Of a DNA stretch of 64,000 nt, positions 44,320-58,439 are shown in pieces. The stretch's first letter is position 1. Each line of letters begins with the position of its first letter. The translations under genes were made by a program, and so were the position numbers. The notes below the pieces were generated by a model, which was given only the letters and a program-made list of their open reading frames with translations, did no database searches and was not told where the DNA came from. Source of the stretch: Escherichia coli (GTDB lineage: Bacteria > Pseudomonadota > Gammaproteobacteria > Enterobacterales > Enterobacteriaceae); NCBI RefSeq assembly GCF_003018255.1, contig NZ_CP027440.1. The stretch is one strand, 5' to 3'.

Positions 44320-44332
44320 ATATCCCTTTTAT
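44320..44332. repeat. attL core
   Basis: ATATCCCtTTTAT. A 7-bp perfect identity (ATATCCC) is shared with attR, 13 bp with one mismatch. Confidence 0.7.
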
Positions 44333-44410
44333 CAAATAGTGTTTTTTGCTGTTTCATAATGTTTCAGGTCGTTCATTATGTTTTTGATTATCAACGGATT
44401 TGCCATTTTT

Positions 44411-44450
44411 CTTGTTTCAGCTTGTTTCACGTTGTAGCGCTTTGTGCAAC
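44411..44450 (+). promoter_or_regulatory. Four 10-bp-phased TTGT(nn)CA repeats on the attL-side arm
   Basis: cTTGTTTCAg cTTGTTTCAc gTTGTagcgc tTTGTGCAac. Confidence 0.45.
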
Positions 44451-44453
44451 GAT

Positions 44454-44479
44454 CGGTGTAGTTAATGGTGTAGTCAATT
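44454..44479 (+). repeat. Tandem arm-type site, probable integrase arm-binding (left copy)
   Basis: CGGTGTAGTTAATGGTGTAGTCAATT is identical to 58414-58439. Confidence 0.55.
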
Positions 44480-44500
44480 GTGATGACCGGAATCAAAATT

Positions 44501-45730
44501 ATGAGCAGAGCACTTAACAAACTGAGTGACACACAGCTAAGGAAAATCAACGGCACACCCGCCCAAAAAACAGCCTTTCTTAATGACGGTGGAAACCTGA
44601 GCGTCAGGCATTCAACCAGCGGCCTTTTAACCTGGTATTTCACATACAGGGCCGGAACGGGAAGAGGGACACAACCTGAACGCGTTAAGCTGGGAAATTA
44701 TCCCGATCTGAGCCTGAAAGCAGCCAGGGAAAAAGCCGCACAGTGTCGCGCATGGCTGGCTGAGGGGAAAAATCCACGCTATGAACTGAATTACACCATG
44801 CAGGAAGCGTTAAAGCCTGCAACGGTTGGCGATGCGCTCACCTACTGGCTTGAGTCGTACGCAAAGGAAAAGCGCACAGATTACGAATCACTGAAAAGCC
44901 GGATCAATAAAAACATAATCATCAAAATTGGTGCTATGCCGCTGGATAAATGCGAGCTACGGCACTGGCTGGCCTGTTTTGATCAGGTGGCAAAGCGAAC
45001 ACCTGTTACTGCCGGATTCTTGCTACAGACATGCAAACAGGCGCTTAAATTCTGCCGTAGGCGGCGCTATGCAATCAGCAACGTTCTGGACGATCTGAAC
45101 GTGGCGGACGTTGGGAAAAAACCGGATATAAGCGAACGTGTCTTAAGCACCAAAGAACTGGGCGAGTTATTGCAGGCGCTGGATAAAAAAATATTTTCTC
45201 CTTACTACGTCGCGTTAATCCGCCTCCTGATTGTCTTCGGAGCCAGGACGGTAGAACTGAGGTTATCGGAGATCAGCGAGTGGGATTTTACCGAAATGCT
45301 ATGGACCGTTCCGAAGGAGCACAGCAAAACGAAGGTTGCAATATTCCGGCCCATACCGGAAGCGATCCTGCCGTTCGTCACGCGGCTGGTGGAGCAGAAC
45401 AGGCACACGGGCTTATTACTGGGGGAAGTGAAACAGGAGGCTAGCGTATCGCAGTACGGCAGATTAGCGCACAGGAGGCTAAAACACCTTCAATGGTCAT
45501 TGCATGACATCCGGCGCACCTTTACAACGATGCTGAATGATTTGGGCGTGGATCCTCACGTCGTGGAGCAGCTTACAGGTCATCAGATGCCAGGGATGCA
45601 ACGAGTCTATAACCACTCCCGTTATCTCGATGCGAAACGTGATGCGCTGGATATGTGGACGGAGCGGTTAGGGATACTGGCGGGAGCACATGAAAACGTA
45701 ACCACGCTACCAGTAACCAGAATAAAATAA
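44501..45730 (+). CDS. int: Tyrosine integrase, P4-like (N-terminal arm-binding domain)
   Basis: MSRALNKLSDTQLRKI...LSVRHS..G.LTWYFTYR N-terminus typical of P4-type integrases. C-terminal HDIRRT...GH....Y catalytic region. The ORF track begins 7 codons earlier at GTG 44480. Confidence 0.9.
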   Translation: MSRALNKLSDTQLRKINGTPAQKTAFLNDGGNLSVRHSTSGLLTWYFTYRAGTGRGTQPERVKLGNYPDLSLKAAREKAAQCRAWLAEGKNPRYELNYTMQEALKPATVGDALTYWLESYAKEKRTDYESLKSRINKNIIIKIGAMPLDKCELRHWLACFDQVAKRTPVTAGFLLQTCKQALKFCRRRRYAISNVLDDLNVADVGKKPDISERVLSTKELGELLQALDKKIFSPYYVALIRLLIVFGARTVELRLSEISEWDFTEMLWTVPKEHSKTKVAIFRPIPEAILPFVTRLVEQNRHTGLLLGEVKQEASVSQYGRLAHRRLKHLQWSLHDIRRTFTTMLNDLGVDPHVVEQLTGHQMPGMQRVYNHSRYLDAKRDALDMWTERLGILAGAHENVTTLPVTRIK

Positions 45731-45770
45731 TTTTTTTCGTGTTTTTTCAGTATGCGCATACTGGATAAGT

Positions 45771-45825
45771 GCACAGATACAACGTGAAACAATGTGCAAC
45801 AACGTGACACAATCATGAACAAGAG
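45771..45825 (-). promoter_or_regulatory. Five 10-bp-phased TTGT repeats (inverted orientation) in the int-alpA gap
   Basis: ACAA recurs at 45779, 45789, 45799, 45809 and 45819. The run includes ACAACGTGAAAC and ACAACGTGACAC. Confidence 0.45.
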
Positions 45826-46094
45826 GCCAAAAAGAATACAGATTTATAAGTTACTGATTTTTATTGCTCAACTGGTTTTTTATACATTAGCGAATTACGC
45901 GTTAAAGCGTGCGAAAAAAGGCATAAAACAAGATTTTATGCCTTTGTATTAACATGAATTTAAATGATTTTATCCTGATTATTCCTCTTTCTGTAAACCA
46001 TACGACATCAACATTTGCCATTCACCACACTAGCGGGAACAATACGACACAATAAGACACCTGATGACTCTTTAAGAAACGAAAGGGGGCAATA

Positions 46095-46283
46095 GTGTTA
46101 AGCACTGATCGGTTTATACGTGAAAAAGAATGCGAAAAGCTAACAGGCCTTAGCCGCTCATGCCGCTACCGCCTGGAAAAGGCCGGACAATTCCCATCAC
46201 GTCGTAAACTTGGCGGGCGTTCTGTTGGCTGGTCTTTATCTGAGGTTTTGGCCTGGAAGGATAGCTGCAAGGCAGTTCACTAA
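46095..46283 (+). CDS. alpA: AlpA-family (MerR-like/excisionase-type) regulator
   Basis: 62-aa ORF with a GTG start after AAGGGGG. The pattern RFIREKECEKLTGLSRSCRYRLEKAGQFPSRRKLGGRSVGWSLSEVLAW is typical of AlpA. Confidence 0.85.
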   Translation: MLSTDRFIREKECEKLTGLSRSCRYRLEKAGQFPSRRKLGGRSVGWSLSEVLAWKDSCKAVH

Positions 46284-46424
46284 AAAGACTGGCGGCACAC
46301 AGTCGCCACACATCCACTAATACAGAGATATAACTATGAAGATTGAATATGCGCCCGAACGTGGGCGGGGATTCGTTCGCCCTGGTGAAACTGAAAAACA
46401 ACAAAATTGGGGTTTTTCAGGCAT

Positions 46425-46452
46425 AAAAAAAGCGGCCCCGATATGGAGCCGC
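46425..46452 (-). terminator. Rho-independent terminator for the leftward arc-like operon
   Basis: On the minus strand, GCGGC-loop-GCCGC followed by T7. It lies inside the 248-aa plus-strand ORF, which argues against that ORF. Confidence 0.55.
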
Positions 46453-46526
46453 CTTTCTGAACAATTAACCTGCTGCGCCTTATGTGTATGTGATCCCAAA
46501 CATAAGCACGGGGATGATAGCCGCTA

Positions 46527-46724
46527 TCAGGCTGGTGGGCAATTCCTGTTTTGTCCGTATTGCGCCGCCATTTTCGCTCGTTCAGAGCGCGAATATTTTT
46601 TTAGAAACTCATCAAGGACAAAAGCGCATGGTGCGAATCTTTCTGATTCATGCTCGAGCGCCATATTTTCGTGCTCTCTGTTCGTTTTTTGCGATGGTGT
46701 ATCGCTTGATTCTTTGTTGGTCAT
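46527..46724 (-). CDS. Hypothetical 65-aa protein, second gene of the leftward operon
   Basis: ATG preceded by AGGT. Followed about 70 nt later by the minus-strand terminator. No family was recognised. Confidence 0.4.
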   Translation of the reverse strand: MTNKESSDTPSQKTNREHENMALEHESERFAPCAFVLDEFLKKYSRSERAKMAAQYGQNRNCPPA

Positions 46725-46781
46725 TGTGTGTACCTGTAAAGCAATGCGCCGTAGTACCTCACACCACGGCGCTGATAGTTT

Positions 46782-46973
46782 TTATCCTTTGGGGTCTATG
46801 CCGCGCCGCTTTAGTTCAGTGCGCCCCAACTCTTTAAGCCAGTTGGCTAGGCTTATGCCGTCGCTCTGTGCTTCTTTGTCGAATTGCTCTTTTAGCTCTG
46901 GAGAAATTCGCATTCTGAATTGTGGGGATTGCCCGTCCCCTTTAGGGCTTTTATCGCGTTTGATTGTTGACAA
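46782..46973 (-). CDS. Arc-like ribbon-helix-helix repressor
   Basis: SPQFRMRISPELKEQFDKEAQSDGISLANWLKELGRTEL aligns by eye with P22 Arc MPQFNLRWPREVLDLVRKVAEENGRSVNSEIYQRVMESF. The TTG start at 46973 follows AGGTGG; the ORF-track start at 47054 would put the operator palindromes in coding sequence. Confidence 0.6.
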   Translation of the reverse strand: MSTIKRDKSPKGDGQSPQFRMRISPELKEQFDKEAQSDGISLANWLKELGRTELKRRGIDPKG

Positions 46974-47016
46974 GTGGCCACCTATTAAATTAGCCTTTCT
47001 ATTGTTAGGTGGCCAC
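46974..47016. promoter_or_regulatory. Twin palindromic operators (GTGGCCAC) in the divergent control region
   Basis: ATTGTTGACAAGTGGCCACCTA (core 46974-46981) and ATTGTTAGGTGGCCACCTTA (core 47009-47016), 35 bp centre to centre. Confidence 0.4.
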
Positions 47017-47107
47017 CTTAACACAAGAGCACTTAAAAAAGCAAAGCCCCGCAAGTGCCATTACCACTCGCAGGGCTTCTAACCAACAACGTAAACGAGG
47101 AGCCGTT

Positions 47108-47308
47108 ATGGTTGCCGTAAATCATATACCACACCTTGTACACACACAAACTGCCTTTGTGTGGCGTTTTCTGGCCCTGAGTGCCGGAGAATCTCAAATC
47201 ATCCACGTAACCGCCTGGACGGAACGCGAAGCGCGTAACCGTTGCCCGTCCGGTTGTGTTGCTGTATTTGCCGCCCGTATTCGTCAGGGGGAAACCTATG
47301 CACAATAA
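47108..47308 (+). CDS. Icd-like (host cell division inhibitor-like) small protein, first gene of the rightward operon
   Basis: ATG after GAGGAG gives 66 aa. The motif ..VWRFLALSAGESQIIHVTAWTEREARNRCP.GCVAVFAARI resembles Icd-like proteins of P4-type elements (from memory). Confidence 0.65.
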   Translation: MVAVNHIPHLVHTQTAFVWRFLALSAGESQIIHVTAWTEREARNRCPSGCVAVFAARIRQGETYAQ

Positions 47309-47528
47309 AACCACACCGGACGCAGCAGAAGAAGCAATGCAAATACTGATACGTGCGCTCGTTGATGTTACCCACATGGTGGAGATTATGGAGAGAAAAT
47401 CACAGTCGGAGCACGACAAAAGAAAACTTAAAACAATAAAAATAATTGCCAAAAACTCGCTGATAAAAGTTACAGACATCCTTAATGAGGACATTAAAAG
47501 AATAAGGGAGAAAATTTGTGATGCATAA
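47298..47528 (+). CDS. Hypothetical 76-aa helical protein
   Basis: ATG after GGGGGAAACCT. Overlaps neighbouring genes in operon style. Confidence 0.5.
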   Translation: MHNKTTPDAAEEAMQILIRALVDVTHMVEIMERKSQSEHDKRKLKTIKIIAKNSLIKVTDILNEDIKRIREKICDA

Positions 47529-47748
47529 AATCCCTTTTGAAGTATTAATCCACTCTGAAAACGCATTAATTAAAGCACGCGAAATGAATGCGTTGTTAAT
47601 TAAATTAATTGAAGTGCCGGAAGGTGGTGAGGAATCAGGTGTATTAATGTTTGCAGCCATTCAGACATTACTATCGCCTGTTATTGATGAACTGGATAAG
47701 GCAATGGCAATTCACGAAAATAATAACGCGCCCCACACCGGAGAATAA
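47518..47748 (+). CDS. Hypothetical 76-aa protein
   Basis: Start overlaps the previous stop. No family was recognised. Confidence 0.5.
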   Translation: MMHKIPFEVLIHSENALIKAREMNALLIKLIEVPEGGEESGVLMFAAIQTLLSPVIDELDKAMAIHENNNAPHTGE

Positions 47749-47753
47749 AAATA

Positions 47754-48053
47754 ATGAAACTTAAATATTCTGGCTTAACTGCCAGTGGCAAAACTCGCAC
47801 TAAATTCATGCGCGGTGATATTTACCGCGACCAGTACGGCGGCACGGTAATGATTAAGGGCGTGGAGGAACGGCGCGTAACTTACCGCCGTGAAGGTTAC
47901 GAATATGATTGCGTGATGCCCGTTTATCAGTTCGACCGTGATTTTTCTCTGGTGCAGGCAGCGCAACGCAGCAAGCCCACCAGCAGGGAGAAAGCACGCG
48001 CCAATATTCAGGAAATAAAAAAGATGCTTAACGTATTCAGGGGTAAAAAATGA
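47754..48053 (+). CDS. DUF4222-like small protein
   Basis: 99 aa. The pattern YRD.YG..V.I.GVE..RVTYRREGY...CVMP...F.R.F recalls DUF4222 of P4-like islands (from memory). Confidence 0.55.
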   Translation: MKLKYSGLTASGKTRTKFMRGDIYRDQYGGTVMIKGVEERRVTYRREGYEYDCVMPVYQFDRDFSLVQAAQRSKPTSREKARANIQEIKKMLNVFRGKK

Positions 48054-49804
48054 AACTGGCACCGAACGTAAAACAGCAGTCACGCGGCATAAAACACAAA
48101 GAAACAGAAGTCATTATTTTTGCGGGTAGTGATGCCTGGTCACACGCAAAACAATGGCAGGAACATGACGCGCGTATGGCCGGAGATAATGAGCCTCCTG
48201 TGTGGCTTGGGGAGCAGCAGTTATCAGAACTGGATAAGCTGCAAATTGTGCCGGAAGGCAGAAAATCCGTGCGCATATTCAGGGCCGGATATCTTGCACC
48301 AGTAATGATAAAGGCGATTGGTCAAAAGCTGGCGGCGGCTGGTGTACAGGATGCAAATTTTTATCCTGAGGGTATGCACGGCAAGGAGGTGCAGAACTGG
48401 CGCGAATACCTGGCCCGTGAACGCCAGAATCTTTCTGATGGTCTGGTCATTGAGCTTCCGGTAAAGCAAAAGGCGCAACTTTCGCAGATGGCGGACAGTG
48501 AGCGCGCGCAGCTGCTTGCCGATCGCTTTGATGGCGTTTGCGTACATCCTGAAAGTGAAATTGTTCACGTATGGCGCGGCGGGGTATGGTGTCCGGTCAG
48601 CACAATGGAACTTAGCCGCGAAATGGTGGCGATCTATTCAGAGCACAGGGCCACTTTCAGCAAGCGCGTAATCAATAACGCCGTGGAAGCGTTAAAAGTT
48701 ATTGCCGAACCAATGGGCGAGCCGTCCGGCGATTTGCTGCCGTTCGCCAATGGTGCGCTTGACCTGAAAACGGGGGAATTTTCCCCGCACACGCCGGAGA
48801 ACTGGATCACCACGCACAACGGCATTGAGTACACGCCACCAGCACCAGGGGAGAATATCCGCGACAACGCGCCAAACTTTCATAAATGGCTTGAGCACGC
48901 AGCCGGAAAAGACCCGCGCAAGATGATGCGTATATGTGCCGCGCTGTACATGATTATGGCGAACCGGTACGACTGGCAGATGTTTATTGAGGCCACCGGA
49001 GACGGCGGGAGCGGTAAAAGTACATTCACACACATAGCCAGCCTTCTGGCAGGGAAACAGAACACGGTAAGCGCTGAAATGACATCGCTTGATGATGCTG
49101 GTGGACGTGCGCAGGTTGTCGGGAGTCGTCTTATCGTCCTGGCTGACCAGCCGAAATATACAGGCGAAGGAACGGGCATCAAGAAAATCACGGGCGGCGA
49201 CCCCGTGGAAATTAACCCGAAATATGAGAAGCGTTTTACGGCGGTAATCAGGGCGGTGGTGCTGGCTACCAACAATAACCCGATGATATTCACCGAACGG
49301 GCCGGAGGTGTGTCACGTCGTCGCGTAATTTTCCGTTTCGACAATATCGTCAGTGAGGCCGAAAAAGACAGGGAGCTACCGGAAAAGATTGCGGCTGAAA
49401 TCCCTGTCATTATCCGCCGATTGCTGGCGAACTTTACCGACCCTGAGAAGGCACGGGCTTTACTACTGGAACAGCGTGACGGTGATGAAGCTCTGGCAAT
49501 AAAGCAACAGACGGATCCGGTTATTGAGTTTTGCCAGTTCCTGAATTTTCTGGAGGAAGCACGCGGCCTGATGATGGGCGGCGGTGGCGATTCAGTGAAG
49601 TACACGACCAGGAACAGCCTTTACCGCGTCTATCTGGCGTTTATGGCATACGCAGGCAGGAGCAAACCGCTAAACGTGGCTGAGTTCAGCAAGGCCATGA
49701 AGCCAGCGGCGAAAGTTTACGGGCATGAATATATTACGCGAAAAGTTAAGGGAGTAACGCAGACCAACGCAATTACAACAGACGATTGCGACGCGTTTTT
49801 ATAA
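48050..49804 (+). CDS. P4-family primase / SF3 helicase replication protein (pri-rep)
   Basis: 584-aa ORF with Walker A GDGGSGKST and Walker B LIVLAD. D5-N-like region upstream. The iteron field follows immediately. Confidence 0.9.
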   Translation: MKLAPNVKQQSRGIKHKETEVIIFAGSDAWSHAKQWQEHDARMAGDNEPPVWLGEQQLSELDKLQIVPEGRKSVRIFRAGYLAPVMIKAIGQKLAAAGVQDANFYPEGMHGKEVQNWREYLARERQNLSDGLVIELPVKQKAQLSQMADSERAQLLADRFDGVCVHPESEIVHVWRGGVWCPVSTMELSREMVAIYSEHRATFSKRVINNAVEALKVIAEPMGEPSGDLLPFANGALDLKTGEFSPHTPENWITTHNGIEYTPPAPGENIRDNAPNFHKWLEHAAGKDPRKMMRICAALYMIMANRYDWQMFIEATGDGGSGKSTFTHIASLLAGKQNTVSAEMTSLDDAGGRAQVVGSRLIVLADQPKYTGEGTGIKKITGGDPVEINPKYEKRFTAVIRAVVLATNNNPMIFTERAGGVSRRRVIFRFDNIVSEAEKDRELPEKIAAEIPVIIRRLLANFTDPEKARALLLEQRDGDEALAIKQQTDPVIEFCQFLNFLEEARGLMMGGGGDSVKYTTRNSLYRVYLAFMAYAGRSKPLNVAEFSKAMKPAAKVYGHEYITRKVKGVTQTNAITTDDCDAFL

Positions 49805-49815
49805 TTTTTTGTAAA

Positions 49816-50047
49816 AGCCCTCTACCCCATCTACCTGAATGAAGTAAACGCATATTATTCAACATGATAAGTGGGTAGAGGGCTAGGTAGAAGGCTAATA
49901 AAAGCTCTCTACCCCTTCTACCTGATTTTATCAGTTTCAGGTAGCAGGGTAGACGGCAGGTAGAGGAGCCCAAAAAGCTATCTACCCGCTGAAAGCCGCG
50001 CCATTACTGACATGATGAGCATTCGGGTAGATGGGTAGAGGGGGGGG
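49816..50047. repeat. Putative replication origin: iteron field
   Basis: At least 12 GGTAGA/TCTACC hexamers. Perfect inverted repeats AGCCCTCTACCC (49816-27) / GGGTAGAGGGCT (49873-84) flank a 45-bp AT-rich spacer. A second inverted repeat is AGGTAGAAGG (49885-94) / CCTTCTACCT (49914-23). Confidence 0.6.
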
Positions 50048-50089
50048 AGGCACAACTAAAAACTTTTTAAACGAGGGGGGGGAAAATAA

Positions 50090-50404
50090 ATGCGCATACA
50101 TCAAAATCACTTAACAAATATGCCAGCCGAAAACATGAATCAGGGGCGACAAATGACCAAAATTCGCAGAGACAGAACACAGGCAAAATATAAAGCGTTA
50201 GACATGACAGAGCTTTCCTTAAAGGTGGCAATCAAAGCGATAGACCACCACACACGGGCAGGATACGCGAAGGAACATCCCGACCTGATAAGCGCATTCA
50301 TGACCACGGCGGCGGCAAACTTTGCCACGTTGACAGAACGTGAGATTGCCGAAGCGGAACAGGTAACAACCATCAACGTTAAAACCGGAGAGGTGGAATC
50401 ATGA
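50090..50404 (+). CDS. Hypothetical 104-aa protein
   Basis: ATG after GAGGGGGGGG. 4-nt overlap with ssb. Confidence 0.55.
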   Translation: MRIHQNHLTNMPAENMNQGRQMTKIRRDRTQAKYKALDMTELSLKVAIKAIDHHTRAGYAKEHPDLISAFMTTAAANFATLTEREIAEAEQVTTINVKTGEVES

Positions 50405-50811
50405 CAGCACAGATAGCCGCTTACGGGCGGCTGGTGGACGACCCGCAGGTAAAACAGACCAGCAAGGGCACACCGATGACGCTGGTTCGTATGGCGGTAT
50501 CGCTGCCATGCAGCCAGGCACATGACGGACAGGCGACGTTATGGTTATCGGTTATCGCATTTGGCAAACAGGCCGATTTCCTGGCTAAACATCAAAAAGG
50601 CGATGTTGCCAGCGTATCCGGCACGATGCAGGTAAGCCAGTGGACCGGACAGAACGGGGAAACGCGGCGGGGGTATCAGGTTATTGCAGACAGCGTAATC
50701 AGTGCCCGCGCGGCACGTCCAGGCGGGAACAGACGCAAAACCACAGGCACACAGGGTAATCAGCCACCAGCGGGAGGCGATGACCCTTACGGTGACGGTA
50801 TTCCGTTCTGA
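50401..50811 (+). CDS. ssb: Single-stranded DNA-binding protein
   Basis: 136 aa with an OB-fold N-terminus, a Gly/Pro/Gln-rich linker and the acidic tip DDPYGDGIPF. Confidence 0.85.
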   Translation: MTAQIAAYGRLVDDPQVKQTSKGTPMTLVRMAVSLPCSQAHDGQATLWLSVIAFGKQADFLAKHQKGDVASVSGTMQVSQWTGQNGETRRGYQVIADSVISARAARPGGNRRKTTGTQGNQPPAGGDDPYGDGIPF

Positions 50812-50821
50812 GGGGGTGACG

Positions 50822-51070
50822 ATGGTACATGACCGCATAGCGGAGGAACTCGAGGCAAAAGGCTTTTACCGGAGGGCGTCGGCGCGATGGGGTGAAGTCA
50901 TGCAACTGGTGGAGACAGACAAGGAACGGCATCAGGTTACGATGCGACGGCTGGAATGTTCCAGGAAGGCACAGAGGCCACCGGAGCCGCCAACGGAGAA
51001 CTACGCAGACCTGAGAAATGCAGTAAATCGCACTTACGCAGACATGGGGCTGAGCAAATTAGCAGAGTAG
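50822..51070 (+). CDS. PerC-family transcriptional regulator-like protein
   Basis: 82 aa with ATG after GAGGGGG. AEELEAKGFYRRASARWGEVM resembles the conserved PerC/Pch N-terminal motif (from memory). Confidence 0.6.
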   Translation: MVHDRIAEELEAKGFYRRASARWGEVMQLVETDKERHQVTMRRLECSRKAQRPPEPPTENYADLRNAVNRTYADMGLSKLAE

Positions 51071-51130
51071 GAATATCAGAACCACACCACGCAGCCGGAG
51101 CAATCCGGCTTTTTGTTATTTTTTGTAAAT

Positions 51131-51160
51131 TATTTGTTCGTGGTTGTTCCACGTTGTTCA
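51131..51160 (+). promoter_or_regulatory. Three 10-bp-phased TTGTTC repeats upstream of the capsid gene
   Basis: TTGTTCG TGG TTGTTCC ACG TTGTTCA. The 12-mer GTTCCACGTTGT is identical to the copy at 58384-58395. Confidence 0.45.
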
Positions 51161-51374
51161 CTGAGCGGATCGGCATATTTTACCCGAACTGAATCATGAT
51201 TATTCTCGCCCGTGGTGCCAGGACGCTGGGGCCACTTTCCCGCCTGTTAATGTGCTCGCCAATATTCATTACCAGGCGGGAAAACGATCGGTGCGATTGC
51301 TGATTTCCTTATGAAAAACGGTTGAGTGTTTGCCGCGTCCTGGAGTTCCTTACTTAACCCCAGGACTTTTTTTT

Positions 51375-52532
51375 ATGCCGAGAATAATCGAATTACGCCA
51401 GCAGAAAACCGCCATTAAAAATCAGATGCGCGACATGCTGGAGAACGCTGAAAAAGAAAACCGCAGTCTTAACGATGCTGAGGGCGCAAAATTTGACGAA
51501 TTACGCGCTAAAGCTGAATCCCTCGATAAAGACATTTCCCGCCTTGAAGCCATTGCAGACGAAGAGCGCAGCAAGCCAGGTAAAAGCAGCCAGACCACTG
51601 ACCCCGCAGAACTACGCAGCTACATTCTGACAGGTGAAACCCGCGCATTAAGTACAGGCGTTCCCGCTGATGGTGGTTATACCGTTATCCCCGAACTGAA
51701 CACCGAAATCATGCGAATGCTGGCGGATGAATCCACCATGCGCCGCATCTGTACCGTGAAAAAAATCAGCAGCAACGAGTTTAAGCAGCTTGTTTCCGCT
51801 GGCGGTGCGACCGTTAACCACGGTGAAGAGGGTAAGGCACGCGAACAGACCAGCACCCCGCAGATTAACGAGGTGAGCATTAAGCTGTATCCGGTCTATG
51901 CGTACCCGCGCACCACACAGGAAATCGTGGATTTTTCCGATGTGGACATCCTTTCATGGCTGACGGGTGAGATTGGCGACACCTTCACGGAAACCGAAGA
52001 AAGCGATCTGGTTGTGGGCGACGGTGACAAAAAAGCAAAAGGTTTTTTATCCGTACCCCGTGCAGAGAAGAACGACAAAGAGCGTGATTTTGGTACGTTG
52101 CAGGTAATTAAACCTTCCGAATCTCTGGCGTGGACATCTGCGGACCCGCTGATCGACCTGAAATTTGCATTACGTAAAAAATACCGCAAAAACGCGGTCT
52201 GGGTGGTTAACTCCACGACGGCGGCAAAACTCCAGAAGGTGAAGAACGCGAACGGTGATTACATCTGGCGTGACCGTTTACAGGCGGGTGATCCTGATAC
52301 GTTGCTGGGCCTTCCGGTCGAATATCTGGAGTTTATGCCTGATAACGTTATTGCCCTGGGTGACTTCAAACGCGGTTACTACATTGTTGATCACGAAACA
52401 GGTGTTCGCACCAGACCGGACAACCTCACAGAGCCGGGCTTCATCAAAATTTTCACGCAGAAATATTTAGGCGGTGGCGTGGTGGATTCGAACGCGATCA
52501 AGATTCTGGAACTGCCACAGGACGACGATTAA
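51375..52532 (+). CDS. HK97-fold major capsid protein with N-terminal coiled-coil (delta/scaffold-like) domain
   Basis: 385 aa from ATG 51375. N-terminus IELRQQKTAIKNQMRDMLENAEKENRSLNDAEGAKFDELRAKAESLDKDISRLEAI, followed by a Phage_capsid-like body. Confidence 0.9.
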   Translation: MPRIIELRQQKTAIKNQMRDMLENAEKENRSLNDAEGAKFDELRAKAESLDKDISRLEAIADEERSKPGKSSQTTDPAELRSYILTGETRALSTGVPADGGYTVIPELNTEIMRMLADESTMRRICTVKKISSNEFKQLVSAGGATVNHGEEGKAREQTSTPQINEVSIKLYPVYAYPRTTQEIVDFSDVDILSWLTGEIGDTFTETEESDLVVGDGDKKAKGFLSVPRAEKNDKERDFGTLQVIKPSESLAWTSADPLIDLKFALRKKYRKNAVWVVNSTTAAKLQKVKNANGDYIWRDRLQAGDPDTLLGLPVEYLEFMPDNVIALGDFKRGYYIVDHETGVRTRPDNLTEPGFIKIFTQKYLGGGVVDSNAIKILELPQDDD

Positions 52533-52542
52533 CAGCATACAG

Positions 52543-52571
52543 AAGGGGCTTAAAAGCCCCTTTAGTGTTTT
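52543..52571 (+). terminator. Strong hairpin with T-rich tail between the capsid and protease genes (possible attenuator)
   Basis: AAGGGGCTT-AA-AAGCCCCTT followed by TAGTGTTTT. Confidence 0.4.
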
Positions 52572-53144
52572 ATGGGTGAAAAAATTATGAAGAGTATGGA
52601 AATCCGGTCATCGGAAATCACCACCAGCGGAGCCGGTACGCTGACGGGCTACGTTGTTCGCTGGGATAAGCTTTCAGAACTGTTATGGGGTGAGTTTTAC
52701 GAAAAATTCCAGCGGGGGGCGTTTACTGAATGGCTTGCGGCGGGTAATGACGTTCGCGGCCTGTATGAGCATGACCACAGCATGTTACTGGGGCGCACCC
52801 GTTCCGGCACGCTGAAACTGGAAGAGGACGAAACAGGGTTACGCTTTGAACTGACCCCACCGGATACCAGTACAGGGCGCGACGTTATCGAACTGGTTAA
52901 GCGTGGGGACATCTCGGGGATGAGCTTTGGCTTTCGCTCCCGTAAGGATGTATGGGATACCACAACAGATCCATGCGTGCGCACCGTGCTGGTGGCGGAA
53001 CTGTACGAAATTACCGTTACATCGGTACCGGCTTACCCCGATTCCGGCGTGGAGCTGGCCCGCCGTTCCCTGTATGAGCAGCACCCCGAAAAAATGCCGC
53101 GTGCGGATAATCGCCGCTGGTGGGTGGATTTAGCGGGGGTGTGA
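52572..53144 (+). CDS. HK97-family prohead protease
   Basis: 190 aa. The pattern G.L.GY...W...S......F.E.F..GAF........DV..L..H......LGR...GTL.L.ED..GL.F...L is typical of this family. Alternative starts at 52587 and 52596. Confidence 0.85.
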   Translation: MGEKIMKSMEIRSSEITTSGAGTLTGYVVRWDKLSELLWGEFYEKFQRGAFTEWLAAGNDVRGLYEHDHSMLLGRTRSGTLKLEEDETGLRFELTPPDTSTGRDVIELVKRGDISGMSFGFRSRKDVWDTTTDPCVRTVLVAELYEITVTSVPAYPDSGVELARRSLYEQHPEKMPRADNRRWWVDLAGV

Positions 53145-53145
53145 T

Positions 53146-54357
53146 ATGTGGCCTTTCAGAAGAAAAAAAGAGCAGCGCAGCATGACGCTTGATAAGTTTA
53201 TGGCGCTGGCTGGCACATCGAACACGGGGGCGGGTGAGTACGTATCATCGGGGACAGCGGAATCACTGCCCGCCGTCATGAACGCCGTGACGGTCATCTC
53301 TGAGGCGGTGGCTACCATGCCGTGTTACCTGTACCTGGTACGCAATGAGAAGGGGAAGGAGGCCCGCGAGTGGCTTGATTCTCATCCGGTCGATCACATC
53401 CTCAACGAGCGCCCGAACGCGTGGCAGACTCCCTACCAGTTTAAGCGAATGATGATCCGCCACTGCCTGTTAAACGGTAATGCTTATGCGGTGATTCAGT
53501 GGGGGCGTGATGGTTTTCCGGTGGCTTTACATCCTTACCCGCCGCAGTCGGTGAACGTGGAGCAGACAGGTGATCATAACTGGCGCTACTGCATCACTGA
53601 CGCCTACACCGGAAACACCCGCAACTATTTACCGTGGGAGGTTCTCCACCTTCGTTACTCCACGGATGACGGTTTTATGGGGCGCTCACCTGTAACCATC
53701 TGCCGCGAATCGCTGGGGCTTGGGCTGGCCCAACAACGCCACGGCGCGAGCGTGATGCGTGATGGCATGATGGCGGCAGGGGTTATCACGTCAGGCGAAT
53801 GGCTGGACGGCGTGAAGGGCAAACAGGCATTAGCCGCACTGGAACGCTACAAAGGGGCCAGAAACGCCGGAAAAACGCCCATCCTTGAAGGGGGGATGAG
53901 CTATCAGCAGCTGGGCATGAGTAATCAGGATGCCGAATGGCTGGCCTCCCGTCGCTTCACCATTGAAGACATCGCCCGAATGTTCAACGTCTCGCCGATT
54001 TTTTTGCAGGAATACAGCAACAGCACCTACAGCAACTTCAGCGAGGCAAGCCGCGCATTTCTCACCATGACGATGCGCCCGTGGCTGGCGAACTTTGAGC
54101 AGCAGATAAAAAACGCCCTGCTGGTGGCCTCGCCTGTACCTGGTATCCGGTATCAGGTGGAGTTTGACAGCGCGGACCTGTTACGGGCCACACCTGGCGA
54201 ACGCTTTGCCACCTATGAACGCGGCATCAAATCCGGCGTTATGTGCCCGAACGAAGCCCGCGAACGTGAAGGGCTGTCCCCGCGTGATGGTGGTGATGAG
54301 TTCAGCCAGGCATGGAAACAGGAAGTAAAAATCAGCGAGGGAGAAAAACCGGAATGA
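53146..54357 (+). CDS. HK97-family portal protein
   Basis: 403 aa, adjacent to the protease and similar to phage portals. Confidence 0.9.
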   Translation: MWPFRRKKEQRSMTLDKFMALAGTSNTGAGEYVSSGTAESLPAVMNAVTVISEAVATMPCYLYLVRNEKGKEAREWLDSHPVDHILNERPNAWQTPYQFKRMMIRHCLLNGNAYAVIQWGRDGFPVALHPYPPQSVNVEQTGDHNWRYCITDAYTGNTRNYLPWEVLHLRYSTDDGFMGRSPVTICRESLGLGLAQQRHGASVMRDGMMAAGVITSGEWLDGVKGKQALAALERYKGARNAGKTPILEGGMSYQQLGMSNQDAEWLASRRFTIEDIARMFNVSPIFLQEYSNSTYSNFSEASRAFLTMTMRPWLANFEQQIKNALLVASPVPGIRYQVEFDSADLLRATPGERFATYERGIKSGVMCPNEAREREGLSPRDGGDEFSQAWKQEVKISEGEKPE

Positions 54358-54692
54358 ACATAGGGCGACTGCGTGACAGGATAACGATTCAGACCCTGAA
54401 ACAGACCAGGGATATAACCGGCGAAATACTCGAAACGTGGGAGGACGGTCACACACTCTGGGCAAGCGTGAACATGGTCAGCAGCAAGGAGGCCATTTCA
54501 TCGGGCGCAGAGCTGGCGATTGGTACCGTAAGGATCTGGATACGGTACCGGAAGGACATCAACGCCACCTGCCGGATAAAGGTCAGTACGGGGCCGCTGG
54601 CGGGGCGTGTACTGAATATCATCGGGCAGCCGCTGCCGGATGCCGCCAGGACACGCCTTGAAATTCTTTGTCGTGAGGGCGCGGAAAAATGA
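54354..54692 (+). CDS. Head-tail joining / head closure protein
   Basis: 112 aa starting MNIGRLRDRITIQ, typical of the head-tail joining family. ATGA overlap with the portal gene. Confidence 0.8.
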   Translation: MNIGRLRDRITIQTLKQTRDITGEILETWEDGHTLWASVNMVSSKEAISSGAELAIGTVRIWIRYRKDINATCRIKVSTGPLAGRVLNIIGQPLPDAARTRLEILCREGAEK

Positions 54693-54985
54693 CAGAAGAA
54701 CTTATCACCCTGGAAGAAGTGAAACTCCATTGCCGCATCGATGGCGACGATGAAGACCAGTTAATCAGCGGATACATTGCCGCATCGCTTGAGGCGTGCC
54801 AGATACACATAGGCAGGCGCTTTGATGACGGGCTGGAGTTCACGCCAGCCATAAAGATTGGCTGCATGATGTTTATCGCTCACCTGTATGAAAATCGCCA
54901 GATTGTCGCGGATAACGCAAAAACACGCGTACCCATGACGATAGGCGCACTCTGGACGGCTTACCGTGATGTGGGGGTGTACTGA
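54689..54985 (+). CDS. gp6-like head-tail connector protein
   Basis: 98 aa starting LITLEEVKLHCRIDGDDEDQLISGYIAAS, typical of this family. Confidence 0.8.
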   Translation: MTEELITLEEVKLHCRIDGDDEDQLISGYIAASLEACQIHIGRRFDDGLEFTPAIKIGCMMFIAHLYENRQIVADNAKTRVPMTIGALWTAYRDVGVY

Positions 54986-55425
54986 TGCCGTGGCAACCAT
55001 TAAGACGATGCACAGAACCAGGCTGTAACAGGCGCGTTAAATCCGGCAAGTGTGAGGAGCACAGGCGGGCGGCATGGCGTGCAGAGGATGCCAGACGAGG
55101 ACACCGCCGCGCGCGTGGATATTCCAGACAGTGGGACAAATACCGCGCCATGTATCTGAGTAAAAACCCGTTATGCGTGCGATGCCTTGAGAAGGGGATA
55201 TATACGCCCGCCGTGGTGGTGGATCACATTATCCCGATTAATGGCGGTGATGATGTTCTCTTCTGGCCCGAATGGAACCATCAACCATTGTGCCAGGCGT
55301 GTCATAACCAGAAAACGAAATGGCTTGATCCGGCAACAAAAAGCAAGCGTGCCGCAGGTGGATTTCGTGAAGAGGAAGAACGGGCTGCTAACCGCAATAA
55401 CTGGATGTATGACGCTGATGAATGA
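54985..55425 (+). CDS. HNH endonuclease (packaging-associated)
   Basis: 146 aa with two Cys pairs and DHIIPINGG....WNHQPLCQACHNQKT. Located directly upstream of terS. Confidence 0.9.
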   Translation: MPWQPLRRCTEPGCNRRVKSGKCEEHRRAAWRAEDARRGHRRARGYSRQWDKYRAMYLSKNPLCVRCLEKGIYTPAVVVDHIIPINGGDDVLFWPEWNHQPLCQACHNQKTKWLDPATKSKRAAGGFREEEERAANRNNWMYDADE

Positions 55426-55591
55426 GCGGGAACAAAACCGCCTTATCCGTGGACTTATAAGGCAGCGTGACGCATGGAAGACACAGGAAACAGGGCATAA
55501 AGATAAAGCGTCAGGACGCGCAGAACGCATCACAGCGAAGCGATTAACCGACCGTGACCGCGAGGTTATGGAATGTTTCCGCAATCGCTGA
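55409..55591 (+). CDS. Possible 60-aa basic protein
   Basis: ATG overlaps the HNH gene end. No family was recognised; weak evidence. Confidence 0.3.
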   Translation: MTLMNEREQNRLIRGLIRQRDAWKTQETGHKDKASGRAERITAKRLTDRDREVMECFRNR

Positions 55592-55713
55592 TGAGGCTGT
55601 ATGACGGGGTGGGGGGCGTTTTCAGGACAAACCCGACCCCGCCGGGCACCGAACGCCTCCTCAAATTTTTATGCACGGGAATTTTTTGAAAAATAATCTG
55701 GCGAAAAATAAGC
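55592..55713. other. Candidate cos region between HNH and terS
   Basis: 122-bp non-coding gap. It has a G-rich block GACGGGGTGGGGGGCG (55603-55619), a partly complementary GACCCCGCC, and then an AT-rich tract. Confidence 0.35.
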
Positions 55714-56070
55714 ATGGCAAGACCACCGAAAGCCCCCGCCTACCTGGATGATATCGCCGTGAAGCAGTGGCGGGAAAAATCTAGGCAGCTTGCGGAACGG
55801 GGAGACCTGACCCCCGCCGACTGGAGCAATCTGGAACTGTATTGTGTCAACTACTCCATTTACCGGAAAGCCGTTGCAGACCTTGCGGCGCGCGGGTTCA
55901 GCATTGTTAACAGTCAGGGCGGCGAGAGCAGAAACCCCGCATTAAGCGCAAAATCCGACGCTGAAAGAGTGATGATAAAAATGGCCTCTTTGCTCGGTTT
56001 TGACCCGATAAGCCGCCGTAAAAATCCACCGGAAACAGAAGAAGAGGACGAGCTTGACCGCCTGGAATAA
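55714..56070 (+). CDS. Terminase small subunit (P27 family)
   Basis: 118 aa. The pattern PKAP.YLD..A...W.......E.G.LT..D...LE.YC..Y..YR.A matches this family. Confidence 0.85.
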   Translation: MARPPKAPAYLDDIAVKQWREKSRQLAERGDLTPADWSNLELYCVNYSIYRKAVADLAARGFSIVNSQGGESRNPALSAKSDAERVMIKMASLLGFDPISRRKNPPETEEEDELDRLE

Positions 56071-57715
56071 GTACGCAGAAGACGTAAAAACGGGCAAAAT
56101 TCCGGCCTGTAAACGGCTGAAACAGGCCGTTAAACGGTACTTTTCGGACCTTGAAAGCCCCCTTTACACGTTCGATCGTGAGGTTGTGGAGCGGTTTATT
56201 GCCTTTTCCAGGGTGTGCCCGCACGTAAAAGGGCCGATGCGTGGCAGACCCATTGAGCTGGAGCCGTGGCAGCAGTTCGCCTTTGCGTGCATCCTCGGCT
56301 TTAAGGTTAAGGCCACCGGACGGCGCAAATACACGAGCGCCTTTATCGAAGTGCCGCGCAAAAATGCGAAATCCACGACCGCCGCGATTCTGGCTAACTG
56401 GTTTCTGATTATGGAGAACGGGCAGCAGGATATTTACACCGCAGCGGTGAGCCGTGACCAGGCGCGGATCGTTTTTGATGATGCGCGTCAGATGTGCCTT
56501 TTATCCCGACCGTTACGCAGGCGGGTGAATATTCAGGCCCACAAGGTGATGCACCCGAAAAGCAACAGCCTGTTAAAGCCGCTGGCAGCAAAAGCGGCAA
56601 CCATCGAGGGAACAAACCCCAGCCTTTCCATCGTGGACGAATACCACCTACACCCCGATAACGGCGTTTATTCCGCGCTTGAGCTGGGGATGGGCGCACG
56701 TCCCGAAGGGCTGTTATTTGCCATTACCACATCGGGCAGTAACGTCGTTTCAACCTGTAAACAGCACTATGATTATTGCTGCCAGATCCTGGACGGCGAA
56801 GAGGTCAACGATTCAATTTTTGTGCTGATTTACGAGCTGGACGACGAAAACGAGGTTGATGATCCGGCGATGTGGATAAAGGCTAACCCTAACATCGATG
56901 TTTCCGTGGATCGTGAAAAACTGGCCTCAACCATCCAGAAAGCGCGGGGTATTCCGTCGCAATGGGTGGAGATGATGACAAAGCGATTTAATATCTGGTG
57001 CCAGGGGGCTACCCCGTGGATGGGTAACGGCGCATGGGCTGAGTGTGCCGGAACGTTCACGGAGGAAGATTTACACGGGCAGGAGTGTTACGCGGGGCTG
57101 GACTTATCATCAACCAGCGATATTTCCAGCGTGTGCTATGCCTTTCCGGTCGGTAAAAATATCATGCTGGTTTCCCGTCATTATCTGCCGGAGTTCCAGC
57201 TACAGAACCCCGCCAATAAAAACCGCGCTGTCTATCGCCAGTGGGCTAAAGCGGGCTGGATACGCACAACGCCAGGTGACTGCATTGATTACGACCGGAT
57301 CAGAGATGACATCATGCAGGATGCGGAGAAATTTAATATCAGGCTGGTGGGCTTTGATACGTGGAACGCCACGCATCTCAGGACGCAATTACAGGGGGCT
57401 GGTTTTGAGGTGGAGCCGTTCCCGCAAACCTACCTCAGATTCAGTCCGGCGGCGAAATCGTTCGAAGTTTTTGTTAACCGCAGGGTGATTGTGCATCGTG
57501 GCGATCCGGTGTTGTCCTGGTCGATGAGTAACGTCGTGATGCAGAGTGACGCGAACGCCAATATCAAGCCGAACAAGAAAAAATCACCGAACAAGATAGA
57601 CCCGAGCGTAGCGGCGCTGATGGCGTTTGGTACATTCCAGGCAGAGCATGAGGATTTTGCTTTTGATATAAGCGACAGCCACCGCCAGAAACTGGAAGAA
57701 TTTAGCGGGGTGTAA
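56054..57715 (+). CDS. Terminase large subunit
   Basis: 553 aa with a TTG start after AGAGGA. Contains an ATPase region (VPRKNAKST, IVDEYH) and a C-terminal nuclease region. Confidence 0.9.
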   Translation: MTAWNKYAEDVKTGKIPACKRLKQAVKRYFSDLESPLYTFDREVVERFIAFSRVCPHVKGPMRGRPIELEPWQQFAFACILGFKVKATGRRKYTSAFIEVPRKNAKSTTAAILANWFLIMENGQQDIYTAAVSRDQARIVFDDARQMCLLSRPLRRRVNIQAHKVMHPKSNSLLKPLAAKAATIEGTNPSLSIVDEYHLHPDNGVYSALELGMGARPEGLLFAITTSGSNVVSTCKQHYDYCCQILDGEEVNDSIFVLIYELDDENEVDDPAMWIKANPNIDVSVDREKLASTIQKARGIPSQWVEMMTKRFNIWCQGATPWMGNGAWAECAGTFTEEDLHGQECYAGLDLSSTSDISSVCYAFPVGKNIMLVSRHYLPEFQLQNPANKNRAVYRQWAKAGWIRTTPGDCIDYDRIRDDIMQDAEKFNIRLVGFDTWNATHLRTQLQGAGFEVEPFPQTYLRFSPAAKSFEVFVNRRVIVHRGDPVLSWSMSNVVMQSDANANIKPNKKKSPNKIDPSVAALMAFGTFQAEHEDFAFDISDSHRQKLEEFSGV

Positions 57716-57728
57716 TGAGGTCAGCAGC

Positions 57729-58010
57729 ATGACAGAAGCCGAAATACTGCGATTAATCCGCCGCGTCTCTGGAATCAGCCAGCAGGCTGACGAACAGACC
57801 ACGCAGCCGGACAGCGTGACAGCCGAAAATTATGCGCGTGTTGTTGCTGAGGTGATGCGCCGTGATGGTATCCAGCTTAATGATGCGGATATGCGCGACA
57901 TACGGATCCGCGTTCTTGAAATGCTGGCCTACAATCGCCGTGTAGAGATGTACAGGGAGAAAGAGAAAATTACGTACAACTGGAAGAAGCCGGAGCGGTT
58001 ACGGCGGTAA
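57729..58010 (+). CDS. Hypothetical 93-aa protein, last ORF of the island
   Basis: ORF follows terL by 13 nt. No family was recognised. Confidence 0.5.
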   Translation: MTEAEILRLIRRVSGISQQADEQTTQPDSVTAENYARVVAEVMRRDGIQLNDADMRDIRIRVLEMLAYNRRVEMYREKEKITYNWKKPERLRR

Positions 58011-58370
58011 CGTGTTGATTTAAAGGCGGCTCAATTTTGAGCCTCGTAACTGGTTGATATTTCCGGCAACCTCAATTTGAGGAGAGCGGAAACATCATCC
58101 CTCACATTCTGAATGGTCATAATGACCACGCAGGCCATCGAGGCAACCATAGCGATCATCGTTACGGTTGGAGCTTTCCGCCATTGGTGGAAAAGGTGCA
58201 CATCTGGATCATCATTACGGTGATCAAGGGTATGTAAAACCCACCAGCCTGATTAAAGGTTAACCGGAAAAAAAATCCGGTAGCCCCGTTATGGGGATCC
58301 CCATATCGACATTAACGCCCCTCATGAATTGGTGCGCTTCCCCCTGGAAAGATTACCCGCCTGTATATTT

Positions 58371-58400
58371 CTTGTGTCTATTTGTTCCACGTTGTTTCAT
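58371..58400 (+). promoter_or_regulatory. Three 10-bp-phased TTGT repeats on the attR-side arm
   Basis: cTTGTGTCTA tTTGTTCCAC gTTGTTTCAT. Confidence 0.45.
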
Positions 58401-58413
58401 ACAGTGCACCGAA

Positions 58414-58439
58414 CGGTGTAGTTAATGGTGTAGTCAATT
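58414..58439 (+). repeat. Tandem arm-type site (right copy)
   Basis: CGGTGTAGTTAATGGTGTAGTCAATT is identical to 44454-44479. Confidence 0.55.

Follow-up and report, generated by a model that had tools for sequence, protein, structure and literature searches.

Which protein reads the short array of TTGT repeats that lies upstream of the capsid gene of this Escherichia coli island, and why does the same repeat return near both island ends and between int and alpA? An earlier note on this DNA had proposed that a single island protein, with AlpA as the obvious candidate, bends the att arms for excision and switches on both alpA and the capsid/packaging operon. Here, the arrays were analysed across the whole stretch of DNA (64,000 nucleotides, in the following termed the window), in related islands and against known systems. 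Judged from sequence, a structural model and analogy, the best explanation as a whole, which we hold to be somewhat better than an even bet, is that the arrays are operator sites for the island's own 62-aa AlpA.

Phased TTGT arrays and the island that carries them

As read from the sequence, TTGT starts on the plus strand at positions 44412, 44422, 44432 and 44442 in the left arm, at 51134, 51144 and 51154 upstream of the capsid gene and at 58372, 58382 and 58392 in the right arm; the array in the int-alpA gap runs on the minus strand, with starts at 45822, 45812, 45802, 45792 and 45782 (Table 1). When both strands of the 64-kb window were searched, exact period-10 chains of at least three TTGT/ACAA copies were obtained at these four places only, as had been claimed before, compared with a mean of 0.013 and a maximum of one such chain in 300 dinucleotide-preserving shuffles. 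No other 4-mer formed a chain of at least four copies at period 10 in the window. The 12-mer GTKYCACGTTGT, reported earlier from five places, was found by exact matching at precisely these five and nowhere else in the window, and allowing at most one mismatch gave seven matches in total versus a mean of 1.16 per shuffle. A weight matrix derived from any single array returned the other three as the best-ranked matches in the window, so that the arrays predict each other. These observations support a single motif family that is confined to the island.

Among 37 distinct units collected from related islands, T is found at position 5 in 27, C at position 6 in 20 and C at position 7 in 25. The fixed parts of the unit are TTGT and the 10-bp phase only, a fixity that is partly due to how the units were collected. 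Of the TTGTnnCA unit originally proposed, TTGT and the phase therefore stand, whereas CA is a preference. Two weaker arrays were also detected, one beside the core, with an array score of 17-18 bits where the background reached at most about 14, and one over the promoter-like site of alpA. Neither these weaker arrays nor the integrase-type 12-mer pairs and the P4 Vis precedent described below had appeared in the earlier note.

The element hosting the arrays is a 14.2-kb capsid-forming phage-inducible chromosomal island (cf-PICI) of the EcCIEDL933 type (44320-58519) inserted between allE and allC, the class being assigned after the family description in a preprint (10.1101/2022.09.08.507074). 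As expected for such an element of about 14-15 kb, it is flanked by att sites and combines an int-alpA-primase part with its own HK97 capsid/packaging set, in the order int, alpA, DUF4222 gene, D5-type primase, SSB, PerC and HK97 capsid/packaging genes. The packaging set consists of HK97 capsid, protease, portal, head-tail adaptors, HNH, TerS and TerL, and the island contains no tail genes. Comparison of attL, attR and attB defined a 7-bp core, two copies of which bound the island; by megablast, the border of related islands was placed at 44327. Joining the allE and allC flanks reconstituted a site that is uninterrupted in 5312 of 5426 complete E. coli genomes. A replication origin with iterons of the sequence TCTACC(C/T), unlike the TTGT arrays, is located 3' of the primase gene (49805-50060). 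An Rfam search of the island gave no family match for the capsid leader or the other relevant parts.

Table 1. Features of the island and of its borders, with positions in the window.
Feature	Position	Strand	Basis or remark
attL core copy ATATCCC, left island border	44320-44326	+	comparison of attL, attR and the empty allE-allC site
Weak phased sub-array beside the core, nTGTTTCAnn units, period 10	44339-44378	+	array score; conserved in related islands
Left-arm array, four units TTGTTTCAGC TTGTTTCACG TTGTAGCGCT TTGTGCAACG	44412-44451	+	kept in 10/10 identical-AlpA contexts; alignment
Left-arm tandem 12-mers GGTGTAGTTAAT GGTGTAGTCAAT, probable Int arm-type sites	44455-44478	+	P4 attP geometry; HE-PICI doubled motif; covariation with Int subtype
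int, P4-type tyrosine integrase with arm-binding domain	44501-45730	+	Pfam Arm-DNA-bind_3 and Phage_integrase; annotation of the related copy
Distal gap array, five units TTGTTCATGA TTGTGTCACG TTGTTGCACA TTGTTTCACG TTGTATCTGT	45773-45822	-	
Terminator-like hairpin GGCATAAAA-CAAG-ATTTTATGCC plus T-run, 3' of int, between distal array and alpA	45921-45950	+	sequence reading
Promoter-like TTGCCA-N17-AACAAT upstream of alpA	46015-46043	+	consensus match only
alpA-proximal degenerate units AGGTGTCTTA TTGTGTCGTA TTGTTCCCGC, over the -10 element	46033-46062	-	array score 13-15 bits
alpA, 62 aa, predicted excisionase-type winged helix, proposed binder	46095-46283	+	Pfam PF05930; 8c3t match; AlphaFold/Foldseek
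D5-type primase gene	48050-49804		
Intrinsic-terminator-like hairpin after perC, directly 5' of the capsid array	51093-51118	+	
TTTTGTAAA box	51121-51129	+	invariant 5' of capsid arrays in all cf-PICIs compared (alignment)
Capsid-upstream array, three units TTGTTCGTGG TTGTTCCACG TTGTTCACTG	51134-51163	+	
Candidate weak sigma-70-like promoter: TTTACC (51179-51184), 16-bp spacer, TATTCT (51201-51206)	51179-51206	+	proposed
HK97-type major capsid gene, first of the packaging operon	51375-52532	+	
Right-arm array, three units TTGTGTCTAT TTGTTCCACG TTGTTTCATA plus degenerate fourth CAGTGCACCG	58372-58411	+	
Right-arm tandem 12-mers GGTGTAGTTAAT GGTGTAGTCAAT, probable Int arm-type sites	58415-58438	+	register after the array as in the left arm
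attR core copy ATATCCC, right island border	58513-58519	+	attL/attR/attB comparison

Att-arm modules and integrase sites

Each arm array is contained in one copy of a direct repeat of 75 nt (44405-44479 and 58365-58439, 80% identity), in which four 10-bp units are followed, after 3 bp, by two tandem 12-mers of the form GGTGTAGTyAAT; in the right-arm copy the fourth unit is degenerate. This module was detected in 883 of the 5426 complete E. coli genomes (16%), typically twice per genome. The description of the arrays as lying in the att arms holds in so far as they are found near both ends, but they are located inside the island, 86-125 and 112-141 bp from the core, and not in host DNA. Both end 3 bp before a 12-mer pair, the position on an att arm beside Int arm-type sites that is expected of operators of recombination directionality factors (RDFs).

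The last four bases of each 12-mer track the Int subtype (TAAT versus CACT), on both arms together, while the TTGT arrays are unchanged. Because of this covariation on both arms and by analogy to P4, the tandem 12-mers were assigned to Int, of which they are probably the arm-type sites. Phage P4 is likewise a satellite with a P4-type Int and paired tandem 12-bp arm repeats on both arms. Its annotated attP arm repeats are the tandem 12-mers TTGGGGGCATAA TTGGGGGCATCT, and the pairs are found 54-77 and 113-136 bp from the core, compared with 74-97 and 128-151 bp in the island. In the P' arm of P4, four 10-bp phased units (TCGTCCTGCG TCTTCCGAGG TTGTCCGTTG AAATCCGGAT) abut the int-side pair, as they do in the island. 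A report on helper-embedded PICIs (HE-PICIs; PMC10111431) describes a tandem 'doubled motif' tgTGTATTGCantgTGTATTGCa in attP, which occurs twice in the same orientation, at 81 bp on the upstream and 132 bp on the downstream side of the centre, and for which its authors proposed the arm domains of Int or AlpA as binder. The GGTGTAGTyAAT pairs of the island, located at about 90 bp on the upstream and about 144 bp on the downstream side, resemble the motif as it is described there. The HE-PICI core sequence differs, and the section consulted (PMC10111431) mentions neither phased arrays beside the motif nor further copies near alpA or the capsid operon.

Could the arrays themselves be Int arm-type sites, either in addition to the GGTGTAGT 12-mers or in their place, with the copies at alpA and the capsid gene serving secondary Int-regulatory functions? 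Int carries an Arm-DNA-bind_3 domain, two of the arrays lie in the att arms directly beside int, Int is encoded in every array-bearing island with 87-99% identity, and P4 Int represses its own promoter. Nevertheless, we consider this reading unlikely. The P4 arm repeats are paired tandem 12-mers, a form that is matched by the neighbouring GGTGTAGTyAAT pairs, whereas the TTGT arrays have a period of 10 bp, occur also away from att and stay invariant across Int subtypes with which the 12-mers vary. An island with an unrelated Int (L147; 23% identity, AlpA 64% identical) has a different pair (TGGTCCAAA, twice), yet TGTTTC units (CTGTTTCAGA CTGTTTCGTG) are retained beside it. Int is not known to have a role at capsid promoters. 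Head-to-tail arrays of five to six units with one-turn spacing are furthermore more typical of RDFs than of Int arm sites (PMC7498355). In L253, the GGTGTAGT pair is found together with an Int of 78% and an AlpA of only 66% identity, and phased TTGTTCGy units are present on both arms.

Candidate binders in related islands

Contigs encoding exactly this AlpA were looked up and provided ten different contexts, all of which keep the left-arm array (four units) and the gap array (four to five units). The right-arm array is kept in L001, L002, L018, L021, L022 and L127. The wider comparison comprised 16 array-bearing loci related to the island of the window, in which AlpA is 96-100% identical, Int 87-99%, the DUF4222 protein 31-95% and the orf248 homologue 41-70%; AlpA is the only island protein that stays at 96-100% throughout. 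Conservation in related islands, which the earlier note had wanted to see checked, was borne out for the arrays in these 16 loci. Around them, primase, SSB, PerC and capsid are swapped or missing, three types of capsid module occur and the primase alternates with AAA_25. Islands with an HK97 capsid retain the capsid-upstream array with either a D5-type primase or an AAA_25 helicase, and with PerC present or absent. Since islands with the unrelated AAA_25 helicase keep the arrays, the replicase is excluded as binder, and PerC is effectively excluded because islands without it keep them as well. With these two excluded, AlpA or Int remain.

The loci with exchanged replication genes also bear on the idea that the arrays are replication iterons bound by the primase/replicase, like the P4 type I iterons TGTTCACC in ori/crr. 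With TGTTCAC, the unit TTGTTCACTG includes a sequence similar to the P4 type I iteron, and the TTTTGTAAA box precedes the origin and the capsid array alike, with its second copy at the ori start (about 49807-49815). In addition, unrelated phage contigs place 10-bp phased TTGTCCCA or TTGTCTCACG arrays beside replication genes. However, iterons would be expected to cluster at the origin next to the replicase gene and to change along with it, whereas the origin of the island uses its own TCTACC(C/T) repeats and islands with an AAA_25 replicase (L017, L021-23) carry identical arrays. An iteron function is therefore regarded as very improbable. A scan of IMG/VR with the degenerate pattern TTGTNNCANNTTGTNNCANNTTGT gave mostly chance matches or unrelated elements; several IMG/VR contigs contain TTGTCCCA arrays in inverted pairs, and one phage has TTGTCTCACG five times between its DNA polymerase and helicase genes, in the manner of origin iterons. 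As a warning, phased TTGT arrays alone are not diagnostic of RDFs.

Other binders were considered as well, namely the DUF4222 protein, the orf104 or orf248 homologue, the helper-phage inducer and a host nucleoid protein, together with an effect of intrinsic curvature alone. Homologues of DUF4222 and orf104 are encoded in 16/16 loci and that of orf248 in 15/16, alpA is induced by a helper-phage factor (PMC6092414), and alpA is under H-NS control in Shewanella. On the other hand, these island proteins vary far more than the arrays, as the identities of DUF4222 and the orf248 homologue indicate, and TTGT/ACAA is not an A-tract, which speaks against curvature. A host factor is argued against by the fact that the motif at equivalent positions follows the regulatory module of the island, with TACYY in HTH_17-type islands and drifted units in L144 and L150. 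We therefore give this group of explanations little weight.

AlpA belongs to Pfam family PF05930 and matches the solved 'AlpA family' protein 8c3t in sequence (E 2.6e-6). Its AlphaFold model (pLDDT 86.7) consists of a strand, two helices, a two-strand wing and a C-terminal helix, and in Foldseek the GIsul2 excisionase 8c3t was nearest (TM 0.83), followed by RdfS, Pukovnik Xis, TorI and BldC. AlpA is thus predicted to adopt an excisionase-type winged-helix fold, and alpA encodes, beside int, the small protein of this fold that would be expected of an RDF. With respect to covariation, no clean code linking the recognition-helix variant of AlpA to the unit sequence was found among the compared loci: L189 has the recognition helix of the window AlpA, yet TTGTTCGy units, and L144 and L150 have similar AlpA helices and different units. 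In L150 (AlpA 70% identical, HK97 capsid), the four best matches of the left-arm matrix include both the alpA-proximal and the capsid-upstream array. In most comparisons, divergence of Int is accompanied by that of AlpA, and only a few independent lineages tell the two apart. As a clean helix/unit code was not obtained, the comparative evidence in favour of AlpA over Int is suggestive rather than conclusive.

Genetic work has established AlpA as the master activator of PICIs and cf-PICIs in Gram-negative bacteria. PICIs depend on AlpA for induction and excision, and the protein activates the promoter of its own gene (PMC6092414; PMC11773190), the latter being described for EcCICFT073 (PMC6092414). 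In alpA mutants of EcCICFT073 (PMC6092414) and EcCIEDL933 (10.1101/2022.09.08.507074) induction or excision fails, and alpA mutation abolishes cf-PICI induction (10.1101/2022.09.08.507074), while in PICMIs alpA alone sets off excision. Whether AlpA acts as regulator, excisionase or both is reported differently, and the papers on EcCIMP1 (PMC11773190) and on PICMIs leave this point open. In the literature searched on PICI and cf-PICI AlpA, no description of its DNA targets was found. The excisionase-type fold, the 96-100% identity in 16 loci and the published genetics together make AlpA the best candidate binder, as had been proposed, although Int also changes in most of the comparisons.

The earlier statement that phased tandem sites on one DNA face are typical of excisionase-type proteins agrees with the head-to-tail binding at one-turn spacing described for RDFs (PMC7498355). 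Several excisionase-like relatives bind in this way to one-turn direct repeats at att sites and promoters (PMC7498355, PMC11963761). With exact 10-bp spacing and 3, 3, 4 and 5 units at att arms and near putative promoters, the arrays of the island match this operator architecture in their sequence. The Apl protein of 186 and the Cox protein of P2 have five to seven direct repeats at 10-11 bp spacing in att and a promoter region, and they bind cooperatively, head-to-tail and with DNA bending, discriminating weakly between unit sequences (PMC7498355). They differ from AlpA in belonging to other protein subfamilies, in having sites on one att arm only and in repressing lysogenic/lytic switch promoters, whereas PICI AlpA has been published as an activator. 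The AlpA model can be superposed on RdfS of ICEMlSymR7A (8dgl) and BldC (6ama), both of which assemble head-to-tail into filaments that hold one protein for each turn of the DNA. By binding to attP as well as to its own promoter, RdfS links excision to gene expression (PMC11963761). In contrast to the arrays with their clear, conserved TTGT core, RdfS has no consensus motif, and it uses an extra N-terminal helix for oligomerisation that is lacking in the AlpA model, in which the first element is a short strand (residues 7-9).

Arrays at putative promoters and a proposed AlpA regulon

A dual-function RDF would have its repeats at regulated promoters as well. In the island, arrays are found 5' of alpA and, ahead of the capsid gene, 5' of a conserved element that resembles a promoter. 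In an alignment of 16 sequences, ACAA of the gap array is invariant at period 10 and the intervening bases vary, giving several sequence versions. This large array lies between the int stop codon and a nearly invariant hairpin, a putative terminator, about 200 bp from the likely alpA promoter. Two alleles that differ by a 10-bp indel both retain TTGCCA-N17-(A/C)ACAAT upstream of alpA, and a pair equivalent to the alpA-proximal units is found at the same place in other alleles and in L150. The position of these units over the -10 element suggests a geometry that fits repression better than activation. The claim that AlpA switches on alpA is consequently backed by the published self-activation, but not by the layout, in which the proximal units overlap the -10 element and the large array is far off.

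Upstream of the packaging operon, the array was confirmed at the place where it had first been noticed (51131-51160), about 215 nt before the capsid ATG at 51375. In L002, the hairpin that precedes it is duplicated, with one copy remaining on the capsid side. A consensus scan for sigma-70 promoters gave no strong promoter near the capsid array, the candidate matching 8 of 12 positions and staying below the threshold, and both the TTTACC and the TATTCT block are kept across divergent cf-PICIs in the alignment. As the scan returned no strong match, it is conservation that points to this candidate capsid promoter, relative to which the array would cover about -80 to -50. The AlpA antiterminator of Pseudomonas aeruginosa, brought to mind by the hairpins in front of the capsid ATG, was considered as a model; it was rejected since that protein is an eight-helix Q-like protein acting on a single GGGACG element, in contrast to the 62-aa protein here. 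Among same-AlpA islands, the capsid-upstream array was found only with the HK97-type packaging module, and no array of at least three units was detected upstream of the packaging genes in those with lambda-E-type or Clp-capsid modules. The proposed link between the arrays and the capsid operon thus applies to HK97-type islands but does not extend to the other two modules.

Divergent cf-PICIs from Rosenbergiella, Citrobacter and Erwinia were also compared, the Rosenbergiella locus being cut before int. At least in the Citrobacter and Erwinia islands, an HTH_17 protein takes the place of AlpA and Int is of a tRNA-targeting type. Upstream of the capsid gene, the divergent islands share the invariant TTTTGTAAA box, a -35-like TTTWCY, a -10-like TATYYT and a leader hairpin, while in the repeat block between the box and the -35 element TTGTTC is replaced by TACCC every 10 bp. 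The Int-type pairs GGTATCCTAnnGGTATCCT of the Erwinia island are flanked on both arms by TACYY pairs with 10-bp spacing, and the gap between int and the regulator gene contains AAGTACTT four times at 20-bp spacing. In these HTH_17-type islands, the gap motif (AAGTACTT, 20 bp) and the capsid motif (TTACCC, 10 bp) failed to predict each other. Since one matrix does not predict all four places, the recurrence of the four-place layout with another motif is only partial.

From these data the following scheme is proposed, in which we infer that it is AlpA that binds, where the promoters lie and whether they are activated or repressed. Each 10-bp TTGTTy unit would take up one AlpA monomer, and the monomers, arranged head-to-tail, would build short cooperative filaments and thereby bend the DNA. 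At both island ends, the filament would end 3 bp from the Int 12-mer pair, bend the arm and help the excisive Int complex to assemble. Lambda Xis helps Int to bind at P2, and the arm filament may aid Int binding in an analogous manner. On the left arm, the int promoter would probably come under AlpA control too, in keeping with the action of P4 Vis, and the sites in the int-alpA gap may serve feedback of AlpA on its own promoter. From the capsid array, AlpA would activate the weak conserved promoter of the HK97-type capsid/packaging operon.

A precedent for such a scheme is provided by P4. Its Vis protein, besides its role at att, also regulates the late promoters PLL and Psid. Vis, an AlpA homologue (ORF88), represses Pint and is annotated in RefSeq as 'excisionase and transcriptional regulator'. 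Since it combines excisionase activity with the regulation of late promoters, the coupling of excision to a morphogenesis operon is already known in P4. The AlpA variants of E. coli PICIs are only remotely related to Vis (PMC6092414), which has 88 aa compared with 62 aa in the island AlpA, and the unit sequences differ. The island further differs from P4 in that the array-plus-pair module is duplicated on both arms and in its HK97 capsid/packaging target, which is missing from P4.

Three observations run against the full scheme. One is the missing capsid array in the same-AlpA islands with lambda-E or Clp-capsid modules, and another is the repression-like geometry at alpA. The third is the right-arm array, which lies distal to the Int pair, unlike the lambda Xis sites, which are situated between the Int pair and the core. 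That AlpA acts as one master switch across an entire satellite family, recruiting Int at both arms, regulating itself and the capsid operon and defining a cross-inducible 'AlpA specificity group', is a tentative idea that we rate as possible but doubtful.

The concept extends a principle known from P4 Vis, 186 Apl, P2 Cox and RdfS and is no new mechanism. Its most distinctive trait is the composite AlpA-Int module on both arms, and an AlpA operator and regulon in cf-PICIs is a well-supported prediction. The arrays offer a concrete predicted AlpA operator, a TTGTTy unit in 10-bp phase at five to six sites, and the map sets probable AlpA sites apart from probable Int arm sites and origin iterons. 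If the master-switch idea is true, islands with the same AlpA and arrays, comprising two replicase types and three packaging modules, would be one cross-inducible group, and HTH_17-type cf-PICIs with TACYY arrays would be a separate specificity group. If confirmed, cross-talk between co-resident islands would become predictable, and one helper-induced signal would coordinate excision, autoregulation and capsid production in a satellite family that is present in about one sixth of complete E. coli genomes.

Integration sites, the probable replication origin and alpA promoter alleles

Integrases that are 87-92% identical were found at three chromosomal sites, namely tqsA (locus L001), beside roxA (L014, L016 and L020) and between allE and allC in the window. 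The integration cores differ among the sites, being ATATCCC in the window and ATAACAGCA in tqsA. Despite these different sites and cores, the arm modules (the 75-nt repeats of the att arms) are almost identical across the tqsA, roxA and allE-allC islands.

The region that follows the primase gene is probably the replication origin, with numerous TCTACC(C/T)/GGTAGA iterons in both orientations surrounding an AT-rich centre. One copy of a TTTTTTGTAAA box precedes the origin and another precedes the capsid array, and the stretches that carry them (49796-49815 and 51110-51129) are 90% identical.

The alpA promoter region (window 46015-46062, compared with loci L014-L023) occurs as two alleles that are separated by a 10-bp indel, the length of one array unit. 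TTGCCA-N17-(A/C)ACAAT is present in both alleles, an arrangement that would fit slippage of the promoter by a single repeat.

Coordinates of the probable origin, phased units and hairpins
Feature	Location	Strand	Context
Replication origin (probable)	window 49805-50060		3' of primase gene
Three units GTATTCACTA GTATTCACCA GTGTTCACC	L006 9288-9320 (Gilliamella cf-PICI)		after primase gene
2-unit TTGT site	L021 15094-15113; also L002	minus	directly upstream of 74-aa ORF
Capsid-operon leader hairpin	window 51212-51235; L150 7262-7286; L003 about 4018-4042		conserved, compensatory changes in both stems
Hairpin GTCCTGG...CCAGGAC with eight T	window 51337-51374		3' end directly at capsid ATG

Phased units in other elements

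The last unit of the Gilliamella cf-PICI, GTGTTCACC, includes the type I origin iteron of P4, TGTTCACC, suggesting that this element has a P4 alpha-like origin-binding specificity. Inverted pairs of TTGTCCCA arrays (3-4 units with a 10-bp period, paired arrays about 76-108 bp apart) recur in unrelated IMG/VR viral contigs (L123, L140, L063, L078, L036 and L067) and are probably the origins of an uncharacterised phage group.

Hairpins in the capsid-operon leader

At the predicted leader start, the hairpin reads GUGGU-G-CCAG-GACG-CUGG-G-GCCAC in the window, GUGAC-A-CUCC-GGCG-GGAG-CC-GUCAC in the HK97-capsid island L150 and GUGGC-A-CUCA-GACG-UGAG-CC-GCCAC in loci L003/4/5. An Rfam match to this hairpin was not found; a role in processing, stability or antitermination is possible. 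The second hairpin, with its T-run, looks like an intrinsic terminator, and the sole AGGA able to act as a ribosome-binding site is buried within it. Divergent cf-PICIs carry another stem, GGTTTC...GAAACC, at the same position.

Late regions of islands with the same AlpA

The 74-aa ORF lies in the interval from perC to the late genes. An additional gene has been inserted between perC and the capsid array in the Shigella flexneri copy (L002 9330-9780), where the GCCGGAGCAATCCGGC terminator is duplicated, with one copy on each side of this gene. Three islands (L018, L021 and L022) combine AlpA and arm modules identical to those of the window with very different packaging genes, which are either lambda gpE/gpD/Nu1-like or encode a Clp-protease-capsid fusion. 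This combination shows that the late region is exchanged in a modular way among islands that share the same AlpA.
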